Of a stretch of 64,000 nt of DNA, positions 7,886-56,047 are shown in pieces. Positions within the stretch are counted from its first letter, which is position 1; each line of letters begins with the position of its first letter. A program made the translations under genes and the position numbers. The notes beneath the pieces were generated by a model. The model was not told where the DNA came from, made no database searches, and worked only from the letters and a program-made list of their open reading frames with translations. The DNA lies in assembly GCF_988243305.1 (NCBI RefSeq), contig NZ_OZ547136.1. One strand, given 5' to 3'.

Positions 7886-8764
7886 TTACAGCAAACCGGC
7901 ATGCTTAAGCGCCGCTCTGACCGTCTCACGACCACTGTCGGTGATTGGTGTCATTGGCAGGCGCAGCGTATCGGTCGCCACAAGACCCAGTTCCTTACAT
8001 GCCCATTTCACCGGGATTGGATTGGGTTCGACAAATAGTTTGTTGTGTAATGGCATCAGACGCTGATTAATAACGCGTGCCTCGGCAAAATGCCCTTCTG
8101 CTGCCAGTTTGCACATCTGGGCCATATCACGCGCTGCGACGTTAGCCGTAACGGAAATAACCCCATGACCGCCTAATTGCATGAAGTCCAGCGCGCTCGC
8201 ATCATCGCCGCTCAGCAGAACAAAATCATCTGAAACCAGCTCTTTGATCTGGTTTACACGCGTTAAGTTCCCTGTTGCCTCTTTGATTCCGATAATATTT
8301 TTTACTTTCGCCAGACGGCCCACCGTTTCCGGGAGCAGATCGCAGCCAGTACGGGACGGCACATTATACAGAATTTGCGGCAGGTCAGTATGTTCAGCGA
8401 TGGCTTTGAAATGCTGATACAAACCTTCTTGCGACGGACGATTGTAGTAAGGGGTTACCGTCAGGCAGCCGACGATACCACTGTCATTGAAGCGCTGCGT
8501 CAGGCTAATGGCTTCCACAGTAGCGTTAGCGCCGGTCCCGGCAATCACCGGAATGCGCCCGTCAGCCAGCTCCAGCGTCATCATCACCACATCAGCATGT
8601 TCGTCATGATTTAAGGTAGCGGACTCGCCAGTGGTGCCAACAGAAACGATCGCCGAAGTACCGCTGGCGACATGATAATCAATCAGTTTTTTCAAGCTAG
8701 CCCGACAGACATTACCTTTTTCATCCATCGGAGTAACAATCGCGACAATACTTCCCGTGAACAT
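7886..8764 (-). CDS. dapA: 4-hydroxy-tetrahydrodipicolinate synthase
   Basis: ORF 7886..8782; DapA sequence begins at the internal Met ([17 protein letters not shown]), 292 aa. Confidence 0.9.
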
Positions 8765-8909
8765 GGGCCATCCTCTGTGCAAACAAGTGTCTCAATGGTA
8801 CGTTTGGTATGGCATTAAAAGCAAGCAGACAGAACCGTTCTGATTGTTGTATGCATGTTTTTTTTATGCTTTCCTTAAGAACAACTCACCCCTTAAAGGA
8901 ATAACCAGT

Positions 8910-35712: not shown

Positions 35713-37956
35713 TCAGGCACTTTCGCGAATGGGTTCGATTTCATTCAGCGTATCAATTAACGGTTGCGGCTTACCAATAAGATAACCCTGCATATAATCG
35801 ATCCCCAAAGAGAGCACCGCCTCGCGGATCTCTTCGTTTTCAACGTACTCTGCCACTACCCGCATTTTCTTCATTCGCGCCAGGTGGCAAATCGACGCCA
35901 CTATCTGATAATCCAGACTATTTGACACAATATTGCGGATAAAACTGCCGTCAATTTTAAGCAGATCGGCATTCACATTTTTAAGCCGCGCATAGCTGGC
36001 GTAGCCGGTGCCGAAATCATCAATCGCAATCTGGCAGCCTAATTCCTGAAGATGCTGCAAGGTGATTTGCGCCTGCTTAACATTGGTCAGAGCATTACTT
36101 TCGGTGACTTCAAAAATAAGTTGCCACGCTTCAATCTGATATTTAGCCAGCAGCTGACTGACTTCAACGGGAAAACGAGCCTGACATACCGAGGTTGGCG
36201 ACAGATTAATGGCAAAACGGTGAGCGGGCATCTTCGCTCTGTTTTCAGCCATAAATTGCAGCGTATGTTCAATGACCCACATGTCGATACTCGACGATAA
36301 ACCAAATTCGTGCGCGACCGGCAAGAAGCTGTCGGGGCTGATCAGTTCATCATTCTCACCTTTCATACGCAGAAGAATTTCATGGTAGACATCGCCACGC
36401 ATACCGGTAATCGGCTGGGCCATCAGGAAAAAATGGTTGTGTTCCAGCGCCTGCTGTAGCCGATTCATCATCGCGACTTTATCTTTCAATTCGCGTTGCA
36501 AATACATTGCCCCGCGACGCTGCATATTTTCCGGGGCGTTGGTCACGATGGAAAGCTCGGCGACCGTATTTAGCTCTCCCAGCAGCAGGTAGATATGATT
36601 CACTGGCGAGCGCACATAGCAGTAACTGACGCCAATCTGCGGTTGCATCGGCATTCCATCCCAAAAGAAACGAAATTGCTTGAGATGGCTATCCAGTGCG
36701 GTAATGCGCTCCTGGTGCGATTCTGTATTCAGTCGCAGCGCGAGATCGTTACCCGAAAGCTGATAAACATCTTCACCCGGTTCCAGCAAGGGTGACAGCC
36801 AGTGAGAAAGTTTTTGCTTGTATTGAATCCGTAGCATGATGCCATAGTTCTTAACCAGCATTTCCATGCCAGGGATGCGTAAATAACAAAGCGCAGACCA
36901 GGGGGCATCACGCAACGCGCGATTCAGGGCGCGAACATTTGGCAGATGAACTACCGGGTCCACATACGCAAGCCGCTGAATGCGTCTGACTACCGCTCTC
37001 TGACGGGTTGCCAGTACAGCCATATAATTGACAATAAAAGAGAATACCAGATAACTGGAGGAGGTTATGGTCAGCTGCGTGGTATAGCCAGGATAAATGG
37101 GAATGTAATTTTGATAGCTGTGGATGCTGATCATCAACACGACCGCCCAGAGCAGCGAAATCAGCTTATAACCATAGCGCATCGCTCCCCACATCATCAG
37201 GGGCAGCAATAATGACAAGGTATAGTTGGTGCTAAAAATTGTGCTTTTTTCATTTAACGGCATGCATAACAGCAGCAGTAAAGCACCTAATGCCAGTAGC
37301 CAGAGTGCGAACTCTTTTTTGGTGACTTTGACATCAACCTGCTGTTTTAATTGCGAATAATAACTACGTAAATAAAACGGATTTCGCACTACACGAATGA
37401 TGAAGTAGCACAGCGGGACACCAATCAGATTGCCCACCAGTAAGGCCTGATAATTGATTAAGGTCCCGAGGTTAAAAGGCATGACGCCGACCAGATTTTC
37501 TCTGCTCGCCAGTAATCCTACAAACGCAGCAAACTGGAAAAGTATCAGAAACAGCGTTGCAGGAAACACAATCTGCCAGAATATACGCTGGGAAATTAAA
37601 CGGGTATCACCATGTGAAACGTTGTTACGCCGGGGAGTAAAGACCCTGTAACCGCCCCAACAGAGAATGATAATGATAATAAAATTAGCCGTTAATGAGA
37701 GCGTTTCGTAAAAACCCAGCTCTGCATATTTGCGGACAAAAATCCCTAAGGCGATCCCTGGCAATGCCGCCCAGCTGAAAAACATCATCATGCTGATCAT
37801 CAGAGCCAGAGGCAGATAAAAGAGAAAAACCTCACCGGAAGAAATATGCGCGAAAGTATTAATGTGGGCGAAAATGGGCAAGATTAAAGAAGGCAGGAAC
37901 AGCGGAAGCCCCCACCATTTATCACGTATTTTTATATAAGTTGCATTCAGTTTCAT
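35713..37956 (-). CDS. pdeF: membrane c-di-GMP phosphodiesterase PdeF (YfgF; MASE1, degenerate GGDEF, EAL)
   Basis: 747-aa ORF with a polytopic N-terminal half and a C-terminal EAL domain. Confidence 0.85.
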   Translation of the reverse strand: MKLNATYIKIRDKWWGLPLFLPSLILPIFAHINTFAHISSGEVFLFYLPLALMISMMMFFSWAALPGIALGIFVRKYAELGFYETLSLTANFIIIIILCWGGYRVFTPRRNNVSHGDTRLISQRIFWQIVFPATLFLILFQFAAFVGLLASRENLVGVMPFNLGTLINYQALLVGNLIGVPLCYFIIRVVRNPFYLRSYYSQLKQQVDVKVTKKEFALWLLALGALLLLLCMPLNEKSTIFSTNYTLSLLLPLMMWGAMRYGYKLISLLWAVVLMISIHSYQNYIPIYPGYTTQLTITSSSYLVFSFIVNYMAVLATRQRAVVRRIQRLAYVDPVVHLPNVRALNRALRDAPWSALCYLRIPGMEMLVKNYGIMLRIQYKQKLSHWLSPLLEPGEDVYQLSGNDLALRLNTESHQERITALDSHLKQFRFFWDGMPMQPQIGVSYCYVRSPVNHIYLLLGELNTVAELSIVTNAPENMQRRGAMYLQRELKDKVAMMNRLQQALEHNHFFLMAQPITGMRGDVYHEILLRMKGENDELISPDSFLPVAHEFGLSSSIDMWVIEHTLQFMAENRAKMPAHRFAINLSPTSVCQARFPVEVSQLLAKYQIEAWQLIFEVTESNALTNVKQAQITLQHLQELGCQIAIDDFGTGYASYARLKNVNADLLKIDGSFIRNIVSNSLDYQIVASICHLARMKKMRVVAEYVENEEIREAVLSLGIDYMQGYLIGKPQPLIDTLNEIEPIRESA

Positions 37957-38307
37957 AGATGCTCAGCAGAATCCCCCACATCCTGAAGGAGGTGTATTCA
38001 GACAGGCATCCCACCTGACTTCGAATGATGATTATTCATCACTATAGAGAGCATTGATTCTAAGTGTCATATGAAAGTTCCAATTGATATATATCAAACA
38101 AAATAACCCTGATTAATGAATTATTACGTTTATCATGTTAATTCATCATTATTACATCATCATTGTAAATAATTAAATTAACTTCCATAACATTAAAATA
38201 TGTATCCACTGACGCTTTTTTACATAACGAAGAATTGACCATTTTGTCCTGTTGTGCCTTAATGTAAGTACCGTCCACTGCGTGGGACATACTTCAAGGA
38301 ACCTTTT

Positions 38308-38499
38308 GTGAGTCAGGCAACCAGTATGCGAAAACGACACCGATTTAACAGTCGCATGACCCGTATCGTACTGCTCATCAGCTTTATCTTCTTCTTTGGC
38401 CGTTTTATCTACTCGTCCGTCGGTGCATGGCAGCACCATCAGAGCAAAAAAGAAGCTCAGCAATCCACACTCTCCGTCGAATCACCGGTACAACGTTAG
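38308..38499 (+). CDS. yfgG: small membrane protein YfgG
   Basis: 63-aa ORF with one TM helix in an AT-rich region; matches the K-12 gene order. Confidence 0.6.
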   Translation: MSQATSMRKRHRFNSRMTRIVLLISFIFFFGRFIYSSVGAWQHHQSKKEAQQSTLSVESPVQR

Positions 38500-38809
38500 C
38501 GGTTACCTTCTCCACTTTTACAGAACATAACGGCACCTCGCTGTCGGATGCTTTTGCTCTTTGGGATTATCAAAGCGGCAGATATTCTTTCATCTTAAAT
38601 TTTACGTCTTTGTCCTGACTGATGTTTATCCTGTTTGGCTGCGAAATAAATATAAAATTAACACATATATTTTAATGATGTATTTTTATAAATTATTTCC
38701 CACATGAATTTTAATAAATTTAATCTATTCCTTTATACGCAATACATTTACTTTCCTCTTTTGATGATCTTAAATATCTTATTTTTCGTAATGTGTATAA
38801 CAAGGAATA

Positions 38810-39328
38810 GTGATGAAATTTAAAAAATGTCTTCTGCCTGTGGCAATGTTAGCGTCATTCACTCTGGCAGGATGCCAGTCAAATGCTGATGATCATGCCG
38901 CCGATGTTTATCAAACCGATCAACTGAATACCAAACAAGAAACTAAAACCGTTAATATTATTTCCATTCTTCCCGCAAAAGTTGCCGTAGACAACTCCCA
39001 AAATAAACGAAACGCACAAGCCTTCGGCGCGCTTATTGGTGCAGTCGCTGGCGGTGTTATTGGCCACAACGTCGGGTCTGGCAGCAATTCCGGAACGACG
39101 GCAGGTGCAGTTGGCGGCGGAGCTGTTGGCGCGGCAGCGGGTTCTATGGTGAATGATAAAACCTTAGTGGAAGGTGTTTCTCTAACGTATAAGGAAGGCA
39201 CCAAAGTGTATACCTCCACCCAGGTGGGTAAAGAGTGCCAGTTTACGACAGGTTTAGCCGTTGTTATTACCACGACGTATAACGAAACGCGTATTCAGCC
39301 AAATACCAAATGTCCTGAAAAGAGCTAA
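38810..39328 (+). CDS. yfgH: outer membrane lipoprotein YfgH (glycine-zipper)
   Basis: 172-aa ORF with lipobox LAGCQS and a Gly-rich glycine-zipper region. Confidence 0.8.
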   Translation: MMKFKKCLLPVAMLASFTLAGCQSNADDHAADVYQTDQLNTKQETKTVNIISILPAKVAVDNSQNKRNAQAFGALIGAVAGGVIGHNVGSGSNSGTTAGAVGGGAVGAAAGSMVNDKTLVEGVSLTYKEGTKVYTSTQVGKECQFTTGLAVVITTTYNETRIQPNTKCPEKS

Positions 39329-39343
39329 TAATCAGGAGGAGTC

Positions 39344-39883
39344 ATGAAGAAAGTTTTTCTTTGCGCCATCTTAGCCTCCTTAAGCTATCCGGCTATCGCC
39401 TCATCATTGCAGGATCAACTCTCTGCTGTCGCAGAAGCGGAACAGCAAGGTAAAAATGAAGAGCAAAGGCAGCATGACGAATGGGTCGCGGAGCGCAACA
39501 GGGAAATCCAGCAAGAGAAGCAACGTCGCGCAAACGCCCAGGCCGCGGCTAATAAAAGAGCGGCAACGGCAGCGGCGAATAAGAAAGCTCGTCAGGATAA
39601 ACTGGACGCCGAAGCCTCTGCGGACAAAAAACGCGATCAAAGTTATGAAGATGAGCTACGCAGCTTAGAGATTCAGAAACAAAAACTGGCACTGGCGAAA
39701 GAAGAAGCCCGCGTTAAGCGAGAAAACGAATTTATCGATCAGGAACTGAAGCACAAAGCTGCGCAAACCGATGTGGTGCAATCTGAAGCTGACGCAAACA
39801 GAAATATGACTGAAGGCGGTCGCGATCTGATGAAAAGCGTGGGCAAAGCAGAAGAGAACAAATCGGACAGCTGGTTTAATTAA
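39344..39883 (+). CDS. yfgI: periplasmic protein YfgI
   Basis: 179-aa ORF with a signal peptide and a charged coiled-coil-like body; RBS aggagg upstream. Confidence 0.8.
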   Translation: MKKVFLCAILASLSYPAIASSLQDQLSAVAEAEQQGKNEEQRQHDEWVAERNREIQQEKQRRANAQAAANKRAATAAANKKARQDKLDAEASADKKRDQSYEDELRSLEIQKQKLALAKEEARVKRENEFIDQELKHKAAQTDVVQSEADANRNMTEGGRDLMKSVGKAEENKSDSWFN

Positions 39884-39923: not shown

Positions 39924-39954
39924 AAAACCCTCTGTAGTAACAGAGGGTTTTGTT
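39924..39954 (+). terminator. intrinsic terminator after yfgI
   Basis: aaaccctctgtagtaacagagggttttgtt: 10-bp stem, 6-nt loop, T-run. Confidence 0.7.
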
Positions 39955-40210
39955 CATTCATAGTGCAGGGATCAAAATCATTCCCACTCAGCTATCAATG
40001 AGAAAATAAAATATAAATAAATCAATGCCTTGAAACAAACCACTTAGCAGATACCACGAAAAATACCATGTCTCAATAATAGAGCTGTCTACAGGCTGTT
40101 CAGACGAACAATATGGCCGCTCTACTCCTAATAGAGTCCTTAGCTCGGTCACATCACTAATTTCAACATAGATGTGAACAAAATGAGGCATCAACGCACC
40201 TATTCAGTTA

Positions 40211-41725
40211 GTGTATTTGATATCGTATGTGGCAACAAAAAATGGAGTTACAATCTTGAAAGTAAGCGAGTTATCTAGCCAAATTGGCCGACTTTACGGC
40301 TTAAACAACATCAACATAATTATGGGCCGAAACGGTGCGGGAAAAAGTCGTTTCCTTCGTGATATCGAACAAACAATCAGCCAGAACAAGCAGCAATTTT
40401 ATGTCCGGTATGTAAGTCCAGAGCGAGCAGGATCGTTCAAGCGTGATGGCACCGTCCTCACAAATATGAGCGACAACCCCGAATGGCTGAGGCACACTCG
40501 GGCAGTTAATCAGGCAAGCAACTTCAAAGCTGCATCGGCTATGCTATTTCGCGAGGCCGAGACGCTTTACTTACGTCGACTTGCCAATACTCCGGAAATT
40601 CGAACTGATCTAACGCGAAACTTTCAGACAGACCGATTAAGTAAAATTAATCAGCTTCTCACTAACATTTCGCTCGAGATGGGTAATGTCGATTATGAGT
40701 TTCGATCACTTGTAGATGGTCAGATTATTGATCCGGCCCAAATCAGTAGCGGTGAATCGGAAGCGGTTGCATTAGCCGCGGAAATCATCTATTTCTTCGA
40801 CACAATAGATCCGGAGAAATTCAACGTACTCCTCCTCGATGAGCCTGATGTACATCTGCACCCCGACCTCCAAGCTAGACTGGGCAAGCTGATAATCAGT
40901 ATGCTCGACGAATTTAGAACACACGCGAACAGTATTGCCATATGCTTATCCACCCATAGTTCCCCGCTCGTCTGTTCTCTTGCCGCCTCCCCATATGTAT
41001 CAATCGGCACGAAGAGCTTTGCAGTGAATGAAATCTCATTGATACCGGCCAGCGATGAACTTCGAAAGATTGCACCATTCTTCGGGCACCCCCTATCGCT
41101 TTCTCTTAGCGAAGACGCTGCATTAATTTTGGAAGGAGAGGACGACGAACGAGTCTGGCAACAAGCGGCCAGAACATCACAGGGTCGAATAAAAATCTTT
41201 CCCGTACTAGCAGGTAGCGTAGATCAACAGAGTCAACTTGAGGATTTTTGCGTAGACCTCCTTAGTACACTCTATGACAATCCAATCGCCTTTTCCCTTC
41301 GTGATGGCGATGGTGTAATCAACGAGTCGCTTGAACATCGCCTACCTCTTAAACGCTATCGCTTACGATGCTACGCTATCGAAAATGTTCTTTTGACTGA
41401 TTCATGCCTTGCAGTAATGAATGTTACATGGGTGGAATTTGTAGACGCAGCCAAAAAATGGGTTGAGGATAATCAAACACACTCCGACATAGCGTTGATT
41501 GCAGAACTAATGGAATCGAACGACCGATTGCGTCACAAGAAGATCAAGAAAATCCGCCAACTCGTCTGTGCTATTGTTGAGTGTAAAAAACCTTGGGAGG
41601 TAGTAGTTGGACAAGCAATCGGGGCATTGACCAGAGAAGACCTTGAAAACTCGAATATGTTGATCGATTTTCTTGGAGGAGAGATGGTCAGCGACGTCAT
41701 CTTCAGGGACGCAATAAACCCATGA
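40211..41725 (+). CDS. ABC-type (AAA_21-like) ATPase with C-terminal TOPRIM/DUF4435-like acidic region; candidate OLD/PARIS-like anti-phage nuclease (accessory)
   Basis: Walker A GRNGAGKS, signature-like ISSGESEA, Walker B/D-loop LLLDEPDVHLHPDLQ, H-loop LSTHS; C-terminal about 200 aa carry LEGEDDE and RDGDG acidic motifs; no TM segments; probable true start TTG at 40256 preceded by ggag. Confidence 0.55.
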   Translation: MYLISYVATKNGVTILKVSELSSQIGRLYGLNNINIIMGRNGAGKSRFLRDIEQTISQNKQQFYVRYVSPERAGSFKRDGTVLTNMSDNPEWLRHTRAVNQASNFKAASAMLFREAETLYLRRLANTPEIRTDLTRNFQTDRLSKINQLLTNISLEMGNVDYEFRSLVDGQIIDPAQISSGESEAVALAAEIIYFFDTIDPEKFNVLLLDEPDVHLHPDLQARLGKLIISMLDEFRTHANSIAICLSTHSSPLVCSLAASPYVSIGTKSFAVNEISLIPASDELRKIAPFFGHPLSLSLSEDAALILEGEDDERVWQQAARTSQGRIKIFPVLAGSVDQQSQLEDFCVDLLSTLYDNPIAFSLRDGDGVINESLEHRLPLKRYRLRCYAIENVLLTDSCLAVMNVTWVEFVDAAKKWVEDNQTHSDIALIAELMESNDRLRHKKIKKIRQLVCAIVECKKPWEVVVGQAIGALTREDLENSNMLIDFLGGEMVSDVIFRDAINP

Positions 41726-41740
41726 GAATGACCTGATACT

Positions 41741-42136
41741 ATGACCACGATTGATCCGCCCTCATGGTATCAGTATTTATTTTATAACCCGCCTCTCAAT
41801 ACACCAAGAGATTGCGGTAAAGTGGAGCAGCATGATTACCAGCTTTATCTGGCGATAAATGATATTGAGCATACGAAAACGAAAGCAATGTCATCTAAGA
41901 CCAATAGTATCTGCGAGCAGTTCCATAAAACGATACTGAACGAGTTTTATCAGGTGACGTTCCGCAAAAAGTTATATGATGATCTTGAAGCATTACAATC
42001 GGTTCTTGATGAATGGCGGGTTCACTATAATAATGAGCGAACCCATCAGGGAAAAATGTGCAGTGGCCGAACGCCGATGGAAACGTTACTTGATGGAAAG
42101 CACATCTGGGATGAGAAAAACTTAAGCCAGATGTAA
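41741..42136 (+). pseudogene. remnant of a DDE (rve integrase-core) transposase, C-terminal fragment
   Basis: 131-aa ORF containing ...TNSICEQFHKTILNEF...WRVHYNNERTHQGKMCSGRTPMETL, the characteristic C-terminal segment of rve-type transposases; no N-terminal HTH or full DDE triad. Confidence 0.6.
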
Positions 42137-42229
42137 TCTGACAGATACCTTTATAAATAGCCGGTAATTGTCAGATCAGGTCTGATCTTATACAACTTAA
42201 CTGTGTTATGAGCAATACTGAGGATAGAT

Positions 42230-43000
42230 ATGGAACCAGAGAAATTTGCTGAAACTGCAATAGGATTTACCAAAAGCCCTCTTGGTATCATTGCACTCTT
42301 TATTGTTCTCGTTTATGGATTTGCCTCTTTCGTCGTTGGCTTTGGTAATGGCTTATCAGAGCATATAGCTCCCCTTATTTATTTCATGGTTTTCTTTCCT
42401 GTCATTGTGTTTCTTGGCTTTCTCTGGCTTGTTGCGAAACATCATAATAAGCTTTACGGGCCGTCAGATTTCAAAGATGAAAATAATTTTTTAAGAGCGC
42501 AAATAGCTACAGCAGCATCATTGACCGCCGCCACAGCAAAACAGCCTGAAAATAGTGCAGGGGTCACTGAAAGCCAACTGCGAAAAATCGTCAACGTTGT
42601 ATCCAATGCAAAACGGCAGAGTAAGCATGAAAAATGGCGAAATCGTATTTTATGGGTGGATGATCGACCAGAAAATAATGTTTACGAAAGACAGGCATTT
42701 GAGGCACAGGGAATAGAGTTCGCTTTAGCTCTTTCAACTGACGAAGCCTTAGAATTGTTAAAAACAAATAAGTTTGCAGCTATTATTTCGGATATGGATC
42801 GCAAAGAAGGGGCGCAAGAAGGTTATGTCTTACTAGAAAGATTACGCGCAATGGGAGACAAAACTCCTTTTATGATCTATGCGTCCTCAGATCTACCAGA
42901 GCACAAGAAAATGGCGAGAGAAAGAGGTGCAATTGGCTCCACTAATCGAGCAGAAGAACTCTTTCAAATTGTCATGGGTGCGATTACCAATGGCTCATAA
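42230..43000 (+). CDS. membrane-anchored stand-alone receiver (REC/CheY-like) domain protein (accessory)
   Basis: ATG preceded by gagga; two predicted TM helices near the N-terminus; C-terminal about 120 aa align by eye to CheY (ILWVDDRPEN / ISDMDR / TPFMIYASS); AT-rich codon usage. Confidence 0.55.
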   Translation: MEPEKFAETAIGFTKSPLGIIALFIVLVYGFASFVVGFGNGLSEHIAPLIYFMVFFPVIVFLGFLWLVAKHHNKLYGPSDFKDENNFLRAQIATAASLTAATAKQPENSAGVTESQLRKIVNVVSNAKRQSKHEKWRNRILWVDDRPENNVYERQAFEAQGIEFALALSTDEALELLKTNKFAAIISDMDRKEGAQEGYVLLERLRAMGDKTPFMIYASSDLPEHKKMARERGAIGSTNRAEELFQIVMGAITNGS

Positions 43001-43220
43001 CAAAGCCATTAAATTCGCCCCCTACGGCTACGGTTGCCGGGCGCTCACAACGGCCAGTATCTCATTTGTCGATTTGATCGATCTCATTGTAAGCACTTCC
43101 GGCTAGACTATTTTGGAATACCGCCATTTTGTTGGTAATGGCTTTTATCTTTAGGCCATAGCCGATGTTATAGAGTTACGGCCTTAAAAATAGAAGTCAT
43201 ACACTCAATGAAAAACCAAT

Positions 43221-43250
43221 AAAAAATGCCAGTCAGCAAACTGACTGGCA
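43221..43250 (-). terminator. intrinsic terminator of guaA
   Basis: On the minus strand tgccagtcagtttgctgactggcatttttt: 10-bp stem plus a U-run immediately after the guaA stop. Confidence 0.7.
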
Positions 43251-43294
43251 TTAAAGTTAGTTGGAAAGGCTTAATTTACTATTTATAGCCAGTC

Positions 43295-44872
43295 CTACTC
43301 CCACTCAATGGTAGCTGGCGGCTTGCCGCTGATGTCATACACCACGCGGGAAATACCGTTCACTTCATTGATAATGCGGTTGGAAACGCGACCGAGGAAG
43401 TCATACGGCAGGTGCGCCCAGTGTGCGGTCATAAAGTCGATGGTTTCGACAGCACGCAGAGAAACAACCCAGTCATACTTACGACCATCGCCCATTACGC
43501 CAACAGAACGTACTGGCAGGAAGACGGTGAACGCCTGGCTGACTTTGTCGTACAGGTCCGCTTTACGCAGTTCTTCAATGAAGATGGCGTCAGCACGGCG
43601 CAGCAGGTCACAGTACTCTTTCTTCACTTCACCCAGAACACGAACGCCAAGGCCTGGTCCCGGGAACGGGTGACGGTACAGCATGTCGTACGGCAGGCCC
43701 AGCTCCAGACCAATCTTACGCACTTCGTCTTTGAACAGCTCTTTCAGCGGTTCAACCAGGCCCATCTTCATCTCTTTCGGCAGGCCGCCCACGTTGTGGT
43801 GAGATTTGATGACGTGTGCTTTACCGGTTGCAGAAGCAGCAGATTCGATAACGTCAGGGTAGATAGTGCCCTGCGCCAGCCACTTCACGTCTTCCAGTTT
43901 CAGCGCTTCTTCATCGAATACTTCAACGAAAACGCGCCCGATGATTTTACGTTTTGCTTCCGGATCATTTTCGCCAGCCAGCGCTGACAAGAAGCGATCT
44001 TCTGCCGGTACATGAACAATGTTCAGACCAAAGTGATCGCCAAACATATCCAGAACCTGCTCTGCTTCGTTGAGACGCAGCAGGCCGTTGTCGACGAATA
44101 CGCAAGTCAGGTTTTTACCGATAGCGCGGTGCAGCAGCATTGCAGTCACGGAGGAATCCACGCCACCAGAGAGGCCGAGGATCACTTTATCGTCGCCTAC
44201 CTGCTCGCGGATGCGAGCTACGGCGTCGTCGATAATTTTCGCTGGCGTCCACAGGGCTTCACACTGGCAGATATCACGCACAAAACGCTCCAGCATGCGC
44301 ATACCCTGGCGGGTGTGAGTCACTTCCGGATGGAACTGTACACCATAGAAGCGTTTTTCTTCGTTAGCCATAATGGCAAACGGGCAGCTTTCGGTGCTGG
44401 CTACGGTGACGAAGTCGGACGGGATAGCGGTAACTTTATCGCCGTGGCTCATCCAGACATCGAGCAGCGGTTTACCGTCTGCAGTCAGCGCATCTTCGAT
44501 ACCGCGAACCAGTGCGCTGTCGTTTACGACTTCAACCTGCGCGTAGCCAAATTCACGTTCGTTAGAGGCTTCAACGTGACCGCCCAACTGCATTGCCATG
44601 GTCTGCATGCCATAGCAAACGCCGAATACCGGTACGCCTGCTTCAAAGACATACTGCGGCGCACGCGGGCTGTTTTCTTCGGTGGTGCTTTCCGGGCCGC
44701 CGGAAAGAATAATGCCGCTTGGGTTGAAGTCACGAATTTGTGCTTCTGTCACATCCCACGCCCACAGTTCGCAGTAAACACCCAGTTCACGCACGCGGCG
44801 CGCAACCAGTTGAGTGTACTGAGAACCGAAGTCCAGAATGAGGATGCGATGCTTATGAATGTTTTCCGTCAT
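43295..44872 (-). CDS. guaA: GMP synthase (glutamine-hydrolysing)
   Basis: 525-aa ORF with an N-terminal class-I glutamine amidotransferase and a C-terminal ATP-pyrophosphatase (SGGVDSS). Confidence 0.95.
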
Positions 44873-48004: not shown

Positions 48005-51000
48005 TTACTGGAAGCAGGTCACCAGACCCGGTTTATTCATTAGCGTGATACTACAATCCTGTGCTCCAGTGCCTTCGTCCATTCCACACTGTTGAGAGGA
48101 CAAATAAGGAAAACTTGGTGAAGACGGCCATCCCAGTGAATTAAAAACAGTGTGCAACAACTCTAATTCATTGTATGTCGGTGCATTTTCTATGCTGCCA
48201 CACTGCCTTGCAATATCCCATTTACTGGCATCAATGATATGTGCAGAAGCCCAGTTTTCGTAGTTAATAATCGGTGAGGATACGGGATTAGCCCCGGACG
48301 GCAATTCTGTCGTTAACAACGGTCGATGTAGCGATTTACCATTCACCACTACAGTGTCTGCCATATGTCCCCAAAAGTGCGCCGAGGAAACATTCGGGCT
48401 GGTTGGTACCGTAAAAATAGCGTCCAGCGTGTCTGTCGCGGAAGCGTAATTAGCCAGAGTAACCGTCAGTGGCGTTTTATAACCAGGGGTATTATCCTGG
48501 CGGAGCGTAAAACTTGCCGTCCCATCCGCGCCTGTCATGCCACTAATGGTATTACCGCTTTCACTCAGCGTAACAGCCGAACCAGATAACGGCTGAACGA
48601 TGAGATCGTCCATCGCCACCACATCACCATACAACGTCGCCCCAGCGTTACGCGGCGATGCATCGCCACGTTTCAAAGTAAATTCCACATTCGGTACCGT
48701 ATTCCCGGCGCTGTCTTTCACCGTCACGGTAACGGGCATGGCTTCGCCTTTTTTCACTTTCGCCGCCTGAATAGCTGCGTCAAACGCTGTTGAGGTCAGT
48801 GTGACGCTGGAAACCGTTGCGCGCGCAGACACCAGACACGCCTGATAAGCGGCATTACCATTCAATGTCGTTGTGCCATCTTTCATATTGAGCGACTGAT
48901 TTTTACCATCTGTAGTCTTATCCTGCGCCCACCAGTAATAATAAACTGACCAGCCAGTTTCCGTCGTAAGGGTGTTATTGGGATAACGTTGATACAGTGA
49001 CTTCATATCGCTGAGCAACGGTTGCCGGGCTTCCTCACAAGGGCTGAGGCTGGCATTTGCTTTAGTGGTTGACGAAAAATAGGGCCAGTCCTCATTATTG
49101 TTATTGGTTTTATTTACCCCGGAGGTCGATGGCAGCTCCTTCCACAATTTCGGTCGTTCAAAGACGGTTCCATTTGCCGCTGTCACCGTTTCTGGCATAT
49201 GACCCCAGTAGTCGGCATCCTGGGCGTCAGGGCTGGTGACCACGGTAAATATCAGGTCCAGGTTTGACGTGATCTGCGGATCTTGTGCAAGCGAGACCGT
49301 AAACGGCGTTGCCAGGCCGGTGGTGGCGTTTTGCGTAACATTGAACGTCACTGTGCCATCACTGCCGGTAAAACCAAGCCATTTTGCCGTATCCTGAGCA
49401 AAGGAAATACGGGTTGCTGTCGGTGTGACGACATCTACAATAAGATCATCTGCCAACGATGAGGGCCTAATTCCTGAACGACTTTTCGCCTGCGCCCGCT
49501 GAAGCGTCACGCCCTCACCACTCACCAGGTTGCCATTTTGGTCTTTTACTGTCACGACTAACGGGATTGTCTCGCCCTTTTTCGCCGATGCCGAAGGTGT
49601 GCCGCCGTTACTGGCGGTTTTCGTCTCATCAAATGCTACTGAAGTCAGGGTAACGCTTGACGGCTTAGAGTGAGGCTGTGCCAGGCAGAGCATTAGAGCA
49701 ACCGGAGAGAGTGCGGATGATGCTCGTCCCGTGCTTAGGTTAAAGACCTGATAATACCAGGAGCTACCATTGGAGTTAAGTAATTCATAAATCCACCAGT
49801 TTCCTGACGCTATCGGCAACCCCAGATCTTTCGTTAACGCTCCGTTTGGGTGATCGTCATATAACCCCTGCAATTCGCTGAGGCGCGGTTGATATTCCAG
49901 CGAACAATCTGCCGTCGCTTTTTGAGTACTATATATATATGACCATGTCTCATTATTACCGTTTACCGAGCTCCCCGTAGTCGCTTCCGCTGCCAGTAAT
50001 GGGCGCTTGAAGGTCACGCCTGCCGAACTGGTAAACGTTTCCGGCATATGGCCCCAGTATTTCGCTTTTGGCGAATCCGGGCTGGTTATCACCGTGAAAA
50101 TGACATCCAGCGTGACGCTTTTCGAGGTATCGCGCATGAGTTCTGCGCTGAGCGGCGTTGACAGCCCATAACTGCTATTCTGGCTGACCTCAAACGTAGC
50201 TTTACCATCGCTCCCTGTCTTCAGAAGAGCCTGCGTCCCATCCCCATACAAGATTGACGTTACCCCAGTAGGTTCCACAGGTATGATGGTAAGATCATCT
50301 GCAGAGGCATCGTACGCAGCTTTAGCGCGGTTCAGCGCAGTCCCTCGTTTAAGGTTAAAGCTGGCACCTGGCAGTGGATTGCCTGCGCTATCTCGCACCG
50401 TAACCGTCATCGGGATAACCTCTCCCTTCTTCGCTGTTGCGCTGGGCCTGCCATCATTGCTGGCCGTTTTCGTTGCATCCTCCGCCGTTGAGGTCATTTC
50501 AATAGAAGCCGCCTCTGGATGAGGGTTTACCAGGCACAGCATTAATGCCGAGGTGGTTGAAGACGCTCTTCCACTTGATCCATTTAACAGATAAATATAT
50601 TGATCGTACCAGTTACCCGCATATGCCACCATGTCGTAAGCCCACCAGTAGCTATTTACCGGAATACCCAGATCGGTCTTTATCGCACGACTTGGGTGTT
50701 CGTCGTACAATGCCTGTAGTTCGCTTAACAGTGGTTGATAATGTACATCGCACCCGCTTTTATCGATATCCCCCTTTGTTGCCGATCTCAACACGGCCCA
50801 CTCTTCATTGTCTTCTATAAACGACTGGCCCGACGATCTTTCAGCAGAGAGTAAGGGGCGTTTGAAGGCAGTACCAGAACGCGTAGTGAACGTTTCCGCC
50901 ATATGCCCCCAGTAACTTGCCAGGGGGGTATCCGGGCTGGTTATCACGGTAAACATCACGGGTAATTTGTTGGATTCCAGGCTCGACTGATAGGCCTGAG

Positions 51001-54000
51001 CGTACACATTGGTTACCAGGCCTATAGAATCATCCTGCTTTACCGTAAACGTGGCTGTCCCGTCTGCACCTGTCACCGCATAAAGGGAGATTGATGGAGT
51101 ATCCACTCTTGCCGACGTTCCCGCAGCGTTGATTACAGAGATAGTTCTGTTCGACAACTGTACATTCTGGCGATTTGTCGATCCTTCACGTTTGAGAATA
51201 AACGGAACATTTGGTACGACATTTCCCTGCGCATCTTTTGTCACCACGCGAATCACCGCGTCGTCACCTTTTTTCCGTTTTAGTGCGCTGAGGGTTTCGT
51301 CAACTTTGACAAATTGTGTCGCATCGTTCGCTTCAACAATAATGTGGCTGGTCACCGCCACTGGGGTAGCCCGACAACTTAGCAGTCCTATACTGCTTGA
51401 CATGACCTCCGTTCCATCACCCGTTTTTAACGAAACCGCTTTAAAATTAAATGTTTGAGTGTAATAGGCAACAACCGTACTGGAGATATAGGCGCGTGAT
51501 ACAGGCCATCCCGTAACGTCATGTATTGGCACGTAACCTTCATCGGCATACAGTGACTCCAGCTCACTTTCAATCGGGACATATCCTGCACCGCAACCAT
51601 TTACAGATGTGTTGTTCGACTGGTCCGGCGAGAACAGTGACCAGCTCTCTCCATCTTCCTGAAAAGAGCTTCGACTGGTTGTAACGGAAAGCTCATCTTG
51701 CAATAACGGTCTTTTATAAATAAGCCCGCCTGCACCGGTCATCGTTTCGGCCATATGCCCCCAGAATTTTGCTTTAGGGGTATCGGGGCTGGTTATCACC
51801 GTAAAGACTACCGGAAGCATTGATTTTACGTTATTATCTGTATCCAGCATGGCGGTCAGTTCGGTTTTTAAACCCGTGGTATTGTCCTGTTTCAGTGCAA
51901 GTGTTGTCGTACCATCTGCGCCGGTAACGCCATAAATCAGTGCTGTTGTTGAGGAAAAATTACTCTGCGTGTTACCCCAGGCATCCGTCACGATGAGCGC
52001 GCCTGCTGTCACCGTTGTAGACGCATTTGCCCGATTGACGCTAAGGTTACGTTTAAGCGTAAACGCGGTATTTCCCACCGGGTTACCCTGCGAATCTTTA
52101 GTGGTCACGCGAACCACGACTTCTTCCCCTTTTTTCGCTTTGACAACATTATTCGTACTGTCAAATTTTGTGGGGTCCGCAGCCTCAAGAACGATTTGGC
52201 TAGCCTTGACGATCGGCGTCGTCTGGCAGGTAAGCAGTTCTTTTGTGGCCGATGGAATTATCGAACTGGTGCCTGAACTGAGATTGACGGCCTTGAAGTC
52301 ACGCTGTTCCAGACTACTGCTGGCTGTCGTGCTGGTAAGGTAACTTGAGGCGACGGGCCAGCCCTGAACCGTTTTCATCGCATTGCCACGGTTGGCTTCA
52401 TACAATGACTCCAGCCCGGCCTGAGAGGGAACATATTCACTACCACAACCATTAGAGGATGTGCTTGTCGCCTGAGTTTGGGTAAATTGCGCCCAGTCCT
52501 CATTATCTTCTGCAATCGCTGTTCGACCCGACGTACTGGATAACTCTTTCAACAATAATGGGCGTTTAAAGACCGTTCCATCCGCAGCCGTCACCGTTTC
52601 CGGCATATGCCCCCACATTTTCGCTTTATTGCTGTCCGGGCTGGTGACAACGGTAAAAATGGTATCGAGGGTCGCTTTTTTCGTTGTGTCTGAATAGAGC
52701 GCAGCGGTCAGCGACGTTTTTGTGCCATGGGTATCCGGGCGGGTAATAGTGAGAATTTTAGTGCCATCGCTGCCGGTCATCGCGCTGTATGCTGCGGCGG
52801 TATCATTGAGCGAAGTTTCATCCGCCAGGCCACTATTGATCACAACCGGCGCAACCAGCGCATCACCGCTACCGGCAATGTGTTTTTCGTTTGATCGTGT
52901 ATAACCATCGCCACGCTTCAGGGTAAAAGGCATATCACCCAATGGATTGCCCTGAGCATCTTTTACCGTCACCTTCACCTGTAGCGTTTCGCCTTTTTTC
53001 AGCTTCGCCGCATTTGCTGCCGCGTTCCACTGCGCCGGGTCCACCACTTCCAGCGTAATGCTGCTGGCAGGATTGTTAGCCGTCGTCAGGCAACTGACAT
53101 AAACCGCCGTGCTACCGCCAACGGTCCGCGCGCCATCGTTGAGGGCTATGGTGTAGTAATGCGGCACCTGATCCGCGGGCGAACTGCTCCAGTAGGGCTG
53201 ACGCTGCGTTGGCCAACCGTGTACCGTTTGAACGGCGTTACCGCTGTTAGCATCATAGAGCGCGTTAAGCTGGGAACGGCGTGGGAGCATATTGGCACCA
53301 CAGCCACCTTTACTGGTGCTGGAAGTGTTGGCCTGGCTAACGCGCGACCACACTTCGTTATTTTCCGTTAATGTGCCGTCCGGGCTGGACACTTCCGCAG
53401 CCAGCCGGGGTCGGGCAAAGGTTAATGCATCGACGGTAATCGTCTCATCCATATGCCCCCACATCTGCGCGCCAACCGCATCCGGACTGGTGAGCGTAGT
53501 GAAAATCACATTGTAATTAACAGTATTGGGAATATAGGAGTTTACAGGCGCAATATTCAGCGGCGTCGCTAAGCCCACACCTTGCGGTTGCTTAATTTCA
53601 ACAGTAGCAAAACCCTGCGCATCCGTAGTACCTGCATAGACTAAAGACGGTTGCGATGTTCCGTAGAGCGTGCCATTCATCTCGATTGCGCCGCGGGTTG
53701 GATCATCGAAACCCGTGGTCTGCCCCTGACGATTTTTCCCCATATCTTTCGTGATGGTGAACGCGGTATACGGCACGGGCGCATTATTCAAGGCATTAAA
53801 GGTGCGTACCGTCATGGTAATCGTTTCACCCACTTTAGCCTGCGCTCTGCTGCTTGTGGAAACATCATGATCGGTGTTCGCAGCAATCTGGGCGACCATC
53901 TCATTGCCCGAACAAGAAAGGTAGTTTTGCTTAAAGCCGGAATAGGTGTCGATGTTGCCCGTGGCCAGGTTCACCGACGCGTGCGACGTCTCTTCCACCG

Positions 54001-56047
54001 CACTAAGATACGCTTTTTGCAACGTTGGCCAGCCATATTCGGTGCCGATGACATTGGCTGGATGTGCGGCAAACAAACTGTGCAATGAGCTTTGGCTCGG
54101 AATATGACCTAAACCACACTCAGCCTGCATACTGCTATTCTGATCAAACAGCGCCCAGTCTTCGTTATTTTCCCGCACTGCTCCCAGTTCGTTGTCGGTT
54201 TCATCCGCCAGCCGTGGGCGTTTAAAGATATTATTCGCTTCAATAATGCCTAACATATGTCCCCACATCCGCGCTTTGTCGGAATCAGGGCTGGTGATCA
54301 CCGTAAAAATAACGTCTTTCTCATCCGAGGCGGTAAAATCACTGCGCATTTTCGCGGTGATGTGTGTTTTCACCCCCACGCCGCCTGGCTGGGTCAGCGT
54401 CAGAGAGGCCTCTCCGTTAGCATCAGTGATCCCTTCATAGGTATGGGCGTCAACTTTGCGAACGTTACTGCCACCATCAATTTGTACCGGGTGCGTCTCC
54501 CACGCAGCGTCAGTTTGATTCTTACGGTTAACACCGTCATCCAGATGCAGCGAAAAGTAGTAGTAAGCCAGCGGCTGATCGTTGTTCTTGCTATCGGTAA
54601 TCGTCAGGCGTAAAGAAGCCTCTTCCCCCACCTTTACTTTCATCGCTTTTATCGTCGAATCATAACTGCCCGGCGTCAGTACCAGCTTCGGTTCAACATC
54701 GGGCGCTTCTTTATCGACACAGCTCACAATAAACGTCGTATCGTCCGGTTTTTGCGCTTCGCTGCGGTTCGAAACATCCGCCGCATGGTGCTGGCCACTC
54801 ATCCCCGCCAGTGATGACCAGTAGAAATTACCCTGCATCGGCCAACCAGCCACATCCTGCACTGACGTTGGCACCACCGTCGCCAGCGCACCGAACTGAC
54901 GCATTCCGGGCAAAATGTCGCAATGTTTATCCGCGCCGCTCCAGGTAAAGGTGGACCAGGTTTCATTGTGATCGTTAACCGTACCGTTTTCATTATCGAC
55001 TTCCGCCGCCAGTTTTGGTCGACTAAAAGTGTAATCACGGGCCTTCAGCGTATCGGGCATATGACCCCACATTGTAGCCTGCGGGACATCCGGGCTGGTG
55101 AGGACGGTAAAGATCACTGCCGTTTCACTGGCCTGAGCAATACCCGCGAGGCTCGCGACCAACGGCGTTTTTACACCAAGGCCGTTGGCCTGGGTGACCG
55201 TAACCGTGGCAACACCATTCGCATCGGTAGTACCACGATATTCCGTCGCGGTGGTGGTTAATTCGGTCGTGCCCAGTTTTACCGGCGCAGTATTGTTCAC
55301 TACACCCTGGCGGTTTTCAGCATCTTTGCGTTTGATAACAAAAGGAATATTCCCCACAACATTACCGACGCAATCTTTGGTGGTGACCGTTAACGTGATA
55401 CTGCCGCCAACCGTCGTTTTCGCCGCACCGGAGGATTCGTCATAGCCCGCGGCGCTGACGGAAATAAGGTCACCCTGCGCGGGCGCAATCTTCAGCGTCA
55501 CTTTCTGATCGGCGAGCGTCAGAACACTTTCATAGGGATAGCCCGTCGAGGTGAGTAAATATAACAGCGGCATGGTCTGTTGGGGATCAGGCTGCGCCCA
55601 GGCGACCAGCGAACGCCCGGCAAGTCCCTGAGCGCAAAACGAGCGATCTGCGACTGGCTGTGGGTCCAGTAAGGTGTCCGGCGTCGCGGCATCCGCCCAA
55701 ACTAAAGATACTGTCGGTGGCGTTTGGTTTTCCCAACGTGGGGTGGAAATGATATCGCCTTCTCTGTCTTGCGGATTGGTGACGAGCAATTTAGAGACGC
55801 TAATATCCGCGCTGAATTCACTCGGTTTAGCGGTAAACGCTACCTCATGCGTCTTTGCAGGATCCAGAAAGACACTGCCCTGGTAGACGGGTATGCTGGC
55901 ACTGTCGGCGGTGGGCACGGTACCGTTAAATTCGCCGACCGTATCTGAAGAGTCTTGCCATGCAGATTCTGCCCATGACCGCCCAGGCAGCATTGCGCTT
56001 ATCAGCAATGCGCATAACACAAGGATTTTATTCAGGGTCAGGGACAT
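48005..56047 (-). CDS. giant repetitive surface protein, RatA/RatB-like (Ig-like plus lectin-like repeat modules); CS54-like island
   Basis: 2680-aa uninterrupted ORF with a signal peptide and nine repeats each containing (I/V)FTV(I/L)TSPD...(M/Y/F)WGHM...RP.L...NE.W...CG...L..LY...GWP....YW; no frameshifts seen. Confidence 0.8.
48100..55700 (-). repeat. intragenic tandem repeat array, about 9 units of roughly 0.80-0.86 kb
   Basis: Plus-strand string catatgNcccca (reverse complement of the WGHM codons) recurs at about 48362, 49196, 50045, 50900, 51752, 52604, 53450, 54254 and 55057, giving spacings of 803-855 bp, all multiples of 3. Confidence 0.8.

Follow-up and report, generated by a model that had tools for sequence, protein, structure and literature searches.

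RESULTS

An AT-rich islet at the 3' end of guaA

The DNA analyzed here is a stretch of 64,000 nucleotides from contig NZ_OZ547136.1 (NCBI RefSeq assembly GCF_988243305.1), referred to below as the window, and our subject is an accessory insert of Escherichia coli, the islet, which occupies positions 39991-43298 next to guaA. The genes at this locus are the following:

39344-39883, yfgI
40211/40256-41725, plus strand, open reading frame (ORF) of an ATPase, 504/489 amino acids (aa)
41741-42136, plus strand, ORF of a transposase remnant, 131 aa
42230-43000, plus strand, ORF of TM-REC, a membrane-anchored receiver-domain protein, 256 aa
43295-44872, minus strand, guaA, the target gene, intact, 525 aa (ORF list and annotation)

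An initial annotation, made from the sequence without database searches, had described this region as an AT-rich, strain-specific insertion beside a mobile-element scar, with plus-strand genes for an ATPase-nuclease, a degraded transposase and a membrane-anchored receiver protein. All three ORFs are indeed present, and RefSeq labels them 'AAA family ATPase', 'integrase core domain' pseudogene lacking its N-terminus, and 'response regulator'. The GC content of the insert is 0.428, compared to 0.512 for the whole window and 0.54 for guaA and guaB, which is about 2.8 standard deviations below the mean of sliding 3.3-kb windows (mean 0.513, standard deviation 0.031) and among the lowest values in the window. 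Using megablast, the insert was detected in 27 of 5,426 complete E. coli genomes, whereas the flanks were found everywhere, and insert-free genomes show a K-12-like empty site in which yfgI is followed directly by guaA. The three genes are thus neither present at this position in most E. coli genomes nor core-like in composition, in agreement with the initial annotation, and the insert was acquired horizontally. The ORFs for the ATPase and TM-REC are intact in all 27 E. coli carriers. Neither the ORF list nor family models nor the annotation revealed an integrase, alpA, regulator, rep or mob gene in the islet, and the three ORFs already mentioned are the only ones of note. An Rfam scan of the islet gave one sub-threshold Qrr match, located on the guaA terminator and taken as chance, and a promoter scan of the islet returned fewer sites than shuffled controls.

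The insert ends in attachment cores within the last guaA codons

Alignment with the empty site (...TCATTCCCACTCAATGG..., locus L002) showed that the insert lies within the last codons of guaA. The insertion point is thus in the 3' codons of guaA, and not simply in the space between yfgI and guaA as proposed earlier. The alignment also fixed the boundaries of the insert at 39991-43298, with a 9-bp direct repeat, TCCCACTCA, exactly at both ends (39982-39990 and 43299-43307). This sequence is present in three copies in the window versus 0.39 expected, and two of the copies are the insert ends. No repeats of 12 nucleotides (nt) or longer were found at the boundaries, and the true repeat is 9 nt. 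The boundary features, including the terminators at both sides that had been noticed before and were located by a terminator scan, are listed here:

39924-39951, original bidirectional yfgI/guaA terminator, now on the guaA-distal side of the insert
39982-39990, plus strand, left attachment (att) core TCCCACTCA, left over from the former end of guaA (TCATTCCCACTCA, ...W E stop)
43225-43252, minus strand, replacement guaA terminator, part of the right-hand module of the islet (module B, see below) and conserved with Kluyvera and the metagenomic contig L018
43299-43307, plus strand, right att core TCCCACTCA, inside the last guaA codons (...IEWE, with the stop now TAG), the sequence continuing into guaA

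In the occupied site guaA thus keeps its ...IEWE end, has a new stop codon, and is terminated by a hairpin supplied by the islet. In Serratia, Kluyvera, Klebsiella and locus L018, too, the hairpin seen here at 39924-39951 lies on the far side of the cargo.

The repeat TCCCACTCA is the reverse complement of GAGTGGGA plus T, and TCCCACTC is the reverse complement of 5'-GAGTGGGA-3'. The latter has been shown experimentally to be the att core of GIsul2 at the guaA 3' end, and the GIsul2 integrase also moves an internal, att-flanked and integrase-less CR2-sul2 unit in trans (PMC9376610). PIMEs, described in a 2026 preprint as integrative mobilizable elements of Pseudomonadota whose accessory region contains defence systems, use guaA as attB as well (10.64898/2026.01.12.698999). 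A prophage occupies this guaA core in E. coli strain 315, and in some islet-bearing genomes a prophage is situated directly to the right of the islet, with a junction of TCCCACTCAAT to TATTTACG that was seen in L011 and in the IMG/VR contigs L055-L058. Since the guaA 3' end is attB for GIsul2/PIME-type integrases and for a prophage, the position of the islet reflects an attachment site with multiple users (GIsul2/PIME-type elements, conjugative elements and prophage) and not the function of its neighbours in nucleotide metabolism, to which the initial annotation had attached importance. Viral-contig scans had raised carriage of the islet by phages as a candidate, and this was rejected because the prophage predictions had swallowed the islet beside a prophage at the same core.

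The islet is a fusion of two modules

When the islet was compared by blastn with loci fetched through its two intact proteins, a sharp breakpoint appeared at position 41811. Window positions 39975-41811 match Serratia marcescens (92%), Enterobacter bugandensis (84%) and Pseudomonas aeruginosa (74%), and positions 41811-43399 match Kluyvera sichuanensis and the metagenomic contig L018 at 89%, including the stump of an IS481-family insertion sequence (IS). Judged from these alignments, the islet is a fusion, at ~41811, of two apparently unrelated, self-contained single-gene modules, module A (39991-41811) with the ATPase gene and module B (41811-43298) with the gene for TM-REC. Aside from the genes, the modules comprise:

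39991-40255, plus strand, arm and leader of module A, non-coding (92% Serratia, 84% Enterobacter, 74% P. aeruginosa; indels exclude coding)
41757-41785, 29-nt block CGCCCTCATGGTATCAGTATTTATTTTAT in the tail of module A after the ATPase stop codon, 100% identical between E. coli and P. aeruginosa, compared to 74% for the surrounding DNA
41811-42204, plus strand, IS481-family remnant, left part of module B, consisting of the last ~330 bp of the transposase gene and the right end of the IS

Because the match with Kluyvera and L018 includes the IS481 stump, which accompanies the receiver gene in both, the stump belongs to the receiver module. It matches the NCBIfam model transpos_IS481 with an E-value of 9e-23 over profile positions 206-283 of 284, and it is incomplete, since the similarity to intact copies spans only 41811-42204. 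The 131-aa ORF at 41741-42136 is, on the same alignments, evidently a chimeric pseudogene, with its first ~24 codons derived from the tail of module A and the rest from the transposase fragment. The earlier description as a degraded transposase is therefore accurate for the IS481-derived part, but not for these first codons, which come from the ATPase module.

The junction of TCCCACTCA to GCTATCAAT and the ~280-bp non-coding arm of module A are conserved across genera. A minus-strand ORF of 68 aa within this leader (39988-40194) was ruled out as a gene by frame-breaking indels in P. aeruginosa. Over 97 bp, the arm shares 72% similarity with the end of the L018 conjugative element that adjoins att, and a search with 39991-40130 against E. 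coli genomes and plasmids returned only the same 27 islets and a single chromosome that is stored with the plasmid sequences. The ATPase module takes the guaA-distal position in Serratia, Enterobacter and P. aeruginosa, where its own att-like core and different cargo follow it. This right-hand core is a degenerate guaA end (e.g. CACTCCCACTCG, ...IEWE stop). The cargo that follows consists of a HipA-like kinase with 184-aa and 390-aa proteins without assignment in Serratia (L014-L016, 9780-13116), a 302-aa protein without a Pfam match in Enterobacter (L012, 10309-11217), and, in P. aeruginosa (L008-L010, 9885-13910), a 1,341-aa protein with a helix-turn-helix and an nSTAND-type NTPase, followed by the type IV secretion genes of a conjugative element. 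The Serratia and Enterobacter cargo may represent further candidate defence or toxin modules at the guaA hotspot. In P. aeruginosa the ATPase module is flanked by two cores derived from a guaA end (...EWE stop), with guaA itself outside the fetched 17 kb. Module B occurs alone beside guaA in Kluyvera, and in L018 a core comes next, with a conjugative element beyond it that carries a KAP NTPase, a relaxase and TrbL. Module A of the window breaks off ~90 bp ahead of the right-hand core that belongs to it, and at this break it is joined to the IS481 stump.

The fully conserved 29-nt block in the tail of module A overlaps a mini-ORF of ~22 codons (MTxIxPPSWYQYLFY...) and resembles the guaA 3' end. 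A conserved mini-protein encoded after the ATPase gene was considered and is doubtful, given the 100% nucleotide identity with P. aeruginosa and the changes at first codon positions in Enterobacter, the latter arguing against coding constraint on this block. It may instead be a secondary att-like or integrase-binding site.

Sequence divergence changes abruptly at the two cores

Compared to three other islet-bearing strains (UPEC132, MS1494 and EC42405), the islet differs by 6-15 single-nucleotide polymorphisms (SNPs) in 3,300 bp, whereas the left 5 kb of flanking DNA differs by 95-108 SNPs and the right 5 kb by 282-422. Divergence of the islet is thus ~10-fold below that of its flanks, and the switch occurs within 3-8 bp of the cores: the first SNP of the right flank is at 43310, 3 bp past the core, and in EC42405 the last SNP of the left flank is at 39974, 8 bp before the core. 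Because the SNP density jumps exactly at the two cores, the simplest reading of these comparisons is that the islet passed from one E. coli lineage to another as a single unit, by recombination at its two GAGTGGGA cores, and it presumably entered Klebsiella in the same way. As the islet has no integrase, and with CR2-sul2 as a precedent, we infer that an integrase supplied in trans moved it.

These data can be weighed against the view that the islet is a dead scar, i.e., the leftover distal end of a once complete guaA element that is inherited vertically, is immobile, and carries decaying genes. The absence of integrase and transfer genes, the presence of an IS stump, the truncation of module A ~90 bp before its own right-hand core, and an IS3-family element in the Klebsiella copy of the ATPase gene (see below) would all fit such a scar. 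However, neither att core is damaged, the two ORFs are intact in each of the 27 genomes with every catalytic and structural invariant kept, divergence is ~10-fold lower in the islet with sharp switches at the cores, and the same composite is found at the same cores in Klebsiella with 97% identity, which makes a scar unlikely. Two points weigh against the preferred reading as well: the arm has no nucleotide similarity to other E. coli elements or plasmids, and what links the islet to GIsul2 and PIMEs, judged by sequence, is the core and the target only. Taken together, the insert is probably a cargo islet that lacks an integrase, is flanked by att cores at the guaA 3' end, and was built from two single-gene modules unrelated to each other.

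When islet-bearing E. coli strains are compared with one another, guaA and the right flank (43310-44800 compared with L070-L072) differ by 3-8%. Such values are high for a core gene, and they point to frequent recombination or replacement of alleles near the attachment site.

The ATPase and TM-REC genes circulate separately

The initial annotation had treated the genes of the islet as one three-gene module and the two intact genes as a pair, and the distribution of the genes contradicts this. Using tblastn, the ATPase gene was found within ±6-10 kb of TM-REC in none of 31 loci (from Dickeya, Vibrio, Kluyvera, Acidithiobacillus, Nitrosomonas, Glaciecola, Pectobacterium, Alcanivorax, several Bacteroidota, Chlorobium and Kiritimatiellae). 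Conversely, the receiver gene was absent from all 14 ATPase loci outside the E. coli/Klebsiella islet (8 loci by tblastn and 6, L065-L069 and L062, by gene tables), and the ATPase stands alone in these 14 loci, which come from 7 genera. The only other place where both genes occur is the Klebsiella copy of the same composite. There, an IS3-family element (L049, 2766-5496; window ~40894-40897) splits the ATPase into pieces of 214 aa and 274 aa, and the receiver gene is intact and 99% identical. Because each module circulates alone, and because the Klebsiella ATPase is split and its receiver gene is not, the distribution gives no support for a gene pair, and by this comparative evidence the ATPase and TM-REC do not form one system.

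A partnership would have meant a new two-gene defence system of an ATPase-nuclease sensor and a membrane effector, with the transposase stump inserted between them. The genes are adjacent and on the same strand, they occur together in 27 of 27 E. coli carriers and in Klebsiella, and ABC ATPase defence proteins often have a partner. Yet at every locus outside the islet each gene is found without the other, the breakpoint at 41811 separates modules with different closest relatives, the IS481 stump is a part of the receiver module and was not inserted between partners, and the Klebsiella copy lost the ATPase to an IS3 element and kept the receiver gene. The two-gene reading is largely refuted by this distribution and is very improbable.

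The ATPase is related to the OLD and PARIS nucleases

The protein encoded by module A is:

40256-41725, plus strand, 489-aa ABC-type ATPase fused to an AriB/DUF4435-like TOPRIM domain (PGAP start TTG at 40256; ORF open from GTG at 40211)

Pfam models AAA_15 and AAA_21 match this protein. In PADLOC the best match is PDC-M01A, an untested candidate model (1e-17), followed by AriA (3e-15) and a partial match to AriAB (3e-14; 50.7 bits, residues 85-396 against profile positions 220-523 of 694). When the C-terminal 228 aa were used alone, AriB was the sole match among 5,027 PADLOC models (1.2e-5). In an alignment of 30 homologues (65-94% identity), the Walker A motif GRNGAGKS, the signature SSGES, the Walker B motif LLLDEPDVHLHP and the H-loop are invariant, as are E293/D297 (ILEGEDDE), D350-G-D352 and E376 in the C-terminal half. 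Foldseek aligned the ATPase over its full length to the retron Eco8 OLD nuclease (1.4e-8) and to GajA (1.5e-8), and its closest structural relatives are all anti-phage proteins. From these matches we conclude that the protein is a putative compact, fused AriA/AriB-like member of the OLD/PARIS superfamily that constitutes a family of its own.

By analogy with these relatives, its most likely role would be that of a stand-alone, infection-triggered (abortive-infection) nuclease. As in PARIS and OLD, the ATPase part would hold the nuclease inactive and sense an infection cue, and on triggering the TOPRIM part would cut nucleic acid (tRNA or DNA), so that growth of the infected cell would stop. 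Several observations weigh against this assignment. The protein stays below all curated thresholds, with 30 bits for its NCBIfam match (retron_eff_Eco8) compared to cut-offs of 250-500 (250 for that model), DUF4435 is recognized by Pfam only weakly (E 0.41), a profile of the C-terminal half gave no meaningful match to solved structures, and a fused protein cannot release its nuclease in the manner of PARIS.

A second possibility is that the ATPase-TOPRIM protein serves the mobile element, in maintenance, addiction or the exclusion of competitors for the guaA site, and not phage defence. In Gammaproteobacteria its gene is always the att-adjacent terminal gene of a guaA cargo array, with the conserved 280-bp arm and leader, and OLD-type nucleases also act on other replicons, both of which would suit such a function. 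On the other hand, in Mesorhizobium and Sphingobium the ATPase gene is a lone insertion among housekeeping genes, far from guaA or any element, and the nearest structural relatives are, as mentioned, anti-phage proteins. A service function is therefore rather unlikely, and we favour the infection-triggered nuclease.

TM-REC has a receiver fold on a membrane hairpin

Module B encodes a protein that falls outside the established defence families:

42230-43000, plus strand, TM-REC, 256 aa, two transmembrane helices (2TM) and a receiver domain, start codon 26 bp downstream of the IS481 end

Searches yielded 2,177 homologues of TM-REC. It has a genuine receiver fold with an acidic pocket, in which D144, D145 and D188 (the phospho-acceptor position) are conserved. 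The equivalent of T87 is A218, which is followed by an invariant S220, and the equivalent of K109 is R240 here and is variable in the wider family. The best curated match is the receiver of RcsC (1e-5). No output domain is present, the rest of the protein being the 2TM hairpin only, and neither Pfam nor PADLOC has a model for this membrane part, which is better conserved than the receiver. The charge distribution implies that both termini are probably cytoplasmic, and the receiver would be held at the inner membrane by the two-helix hairpin. As the initial annotation had suspected, the islet does not match a well-described system: neither of the two intact proteins reaches the threshold of a curated defence family.

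The gene occurs in a P4-like satellite, at the guaA site and as single-gene insertions in core DNA, e.g. between rnt and grxD in Buttiauxella. In Vibrio cyclitrophicus and relatives (L005-L007, ~8001-8774) it is preceded by an IS3 element and is part of a long array of small ORFs on the same strand, interspersed with ParE/Phd and GNAT/TacA toxin-antitoxin pairs and a HEPN protein, which looks like a chromosomal integron cassette array. Across 26 loci no conserved neighbour was found, and no cognate kinase among the neighbours.

In Pseudomonas cavernicola (L054, 4553-5922), an adenosine-deaminase-family gene overlaps a gene for a Ham1-like protein (ITPase) ~1 kb upstream of TM-REC, among proteins without a Pfam match. 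This pair may be a nucleotide-targeting defence or phage module.

The membrane hairpin is shared by proteins with different heads

Residues 1-135 of TM-REC were searched against 1.84 billion cluster representatives. The hairpin is shared by at least 1,380 proteins (805 at E <= 1e-10), each representing a cluster at 50% identity. Among 97 full-length representatives, at least 22 classes of C-terminal heads were distinguished:

NERD/HamA-like D...E-x-K domain, 33 representatives
receiver, 31 representatives
pYEATS, 5 representatives
winged helix, 4 representatives
TIR (PADLOC TIR effector, 3e-8), 1 representative
other head classes, many singletons

The hairpin is also present in the phage protein family phrog_26238. 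The polymorphism of the heads suggests a conflict-system family, a suggestion that finds no support in the gene neighbourhoods. By our best guess, TM-REC would be a conflict protein that acts alone and on the membrane, with its receiver head gating the membrane hairpin, and the sole basis of this guess is that the same hairpin carries nuclease-like, pYEATS and TIR heads. In a tentative reading that is more likely wrong than right, the hairpin would define a large superfamily, so far without annotation, of conflict proteins that are encoded by single genes, anchored in the membrane and fitted with exchangeable cytoplasmic heads. The receiver form would then be a kinase-less, phosphorylation- or ligand-gated abortive-infection effector that acts at the membrane, and satellites, integron-like arrays and islets at att sites would carry it as a cassette of one gene.

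Several findings weigh against a function in defence. The identity between the E. coli protein and those of Bacteroidota is 58-66%, which is unusually high for a defence gene, PADLOC gave no match to TM-REC, and a defence-island signal is absent, with only 2 of 10 immediate neighbours matching defence models in PADLOC. A Pfam census of 79 neighbours in 21 species returned mostly housekeeping genes. For TM-REC, a role in defence or abortive infection is therefore possible, but falls well short of being probable. In the islet, the IS481 stump has taken the place of the receiver gene's native promoter, a caveat for expression of the gene.

A kinase-less signalling or decoy role is a serious rival. 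TM-REC could be an accessory outside defence, a membrane-tethered phosphate sink or decoy receiver that draws on a host phosphorelay (e.g. Rcs) or on acetyl phosphate and retunes the envelope for its carrier. The genuine receiver fold with its acidic pocket and phospho-acceptor aspartate, the RcsC receiver as best curated match, and the strong conservation across phyla among mostly housekeeping neighbours, without a match to defence models, are all in line with this idea. It fits less well that neither a cognate kinase nor any other conserved neighbour was found, that the hairpin outconserves the receiver and is common to conflict-type heads (nuclease-like, pYEATS, TIR), and that TM-REC occurs in a P4-like satellite, in the Vibrio toxin-antitoxin cassette array, and beside a conjugative element. 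We regard such a role as possible and tentative, like the proposed superfamily of conflict proteins.

In one pYEATS-headed relative (P0279), residues 13-120, comprising the 2TM module, weakly matched the PADLOC 'TM+CARF' Csx1 model (3.8e-4), a match that the E. coli TM-REC does not show and that could be either compositional or a link to type III CRISPR membrane effectors. A literature search with the protein accessions or 'pYEATS' found nothing, and in the DefensePredictor study REC is mentioned only in a legend on predicted systems (PMC13092281).

Other regions of the window

Two further regions of the window stand out. A minus-strand ORF of 2,680 aa (48005-56047), directly after xseA, is labelled 'adhesion domain-containing protein' in matching genomes, and given the K-12 gene order, this is presumably another accessory insertion. 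The markedly AT-rich stretch at 37950-38850 (GC 0.27-0.35 in 300-bp windows), around yfgG and upstream of yfgH, is conserved core sequence in other E. coli.

DISCUSSION

The islet probably holds one defence nuclease of a known superfamily and one uncharacterized membrane receiver protein, and no new multi-gene system. Adjacency of genes in one species does not make a system, and here it was the breakpoints and the distribution that revealed two independent single-gene modules. The islet also offers a clean natural case of integrase-less cargo that would move as a unit via GAGTGGGA cores, with endpoints defined within a few bases, and it favours the view that att-flanked units of cargo are moved in trans by integrases that target guaA. 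From a compact, fused nuclease of the AriA/AriB-like kind one could learn how control of the PARIS type operates when sensor and effector are inseparable. The 2TM module is very widespread and strongly conserved, carries polymorphic heads, and is absent from Pfam and PADLOC, and its receiver-headed form comes without a kinase. We consider this polymorphic 2TM family and the evidence for trans-mobilized, att-flanked cargo to be the most interesting leads.

Comparison with known systems

In PARIS, the AriA scaffold senses Ocr-type proteins and releases AriB, which dimerizes and cuts tRNA-Lys, and AriA and AriB are fused in occasional cases (PMC11464382). The ATPase-TOPRIM protein of the islet resembles PARIS in its AriA-type ABC ATPase, in its location in the cargo of a mobile element, and in the series E293-x3-D297 ... 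D350-x-D352 ... E376, which would correspond to E26, D30, D88, E90 and E122 of AriB (PMC11464382). It differs in its size of 489 aa, compared to ~55 kDa and 35 kDa for AriA and AriB and 694 positions in the AriAB model, and in lacking a family-level match over the whole protein, the AriAB match being partial and outscored by PDC-M01A. With the OLD family (P2 Old, Gabija GajA and the retron Eco8 effector) it shares the single chain in which an ABC ATPase is followed by a TOPRIM domain, and like class 1 OLD proteins it is encoded by a single gene without a fixed partner. Unlike the members of this family, it is smaller, has a TOPRIM domain of the DUF4435/AriB type, and comes without a helicase or retron partner.

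TM-REC differs from two-component regulators and Detocs in that it has no kinase, buffer protein or enzymatic output domain, in that its receiver is C-terminal to a 2TM hairpin, and in that the equivalent of T87 is an alanine and that of K109 an arginine or variable.

The islet as a whole compares best with GIsul2 and the PIMEs. Unlike these elements it has no int, alpA, rep or mob genes. It shares with them the target at the guaA 3' end and the GAGTGGGA core, here at both ends, and cargo of the islet type accretes in tandem between att-like sites, as in GIsul2 and PIMEs. The probable defence cargo is a further likeness to PIMEs, which carry theirs at the integrase-distal end. The closest parallel is CR2-sul2, an integrase-less, att-flanked unit that is moved in trans (PMC9376610), and a comparable mobilization of the islet would fit the SNP discontinuities at its two cores.

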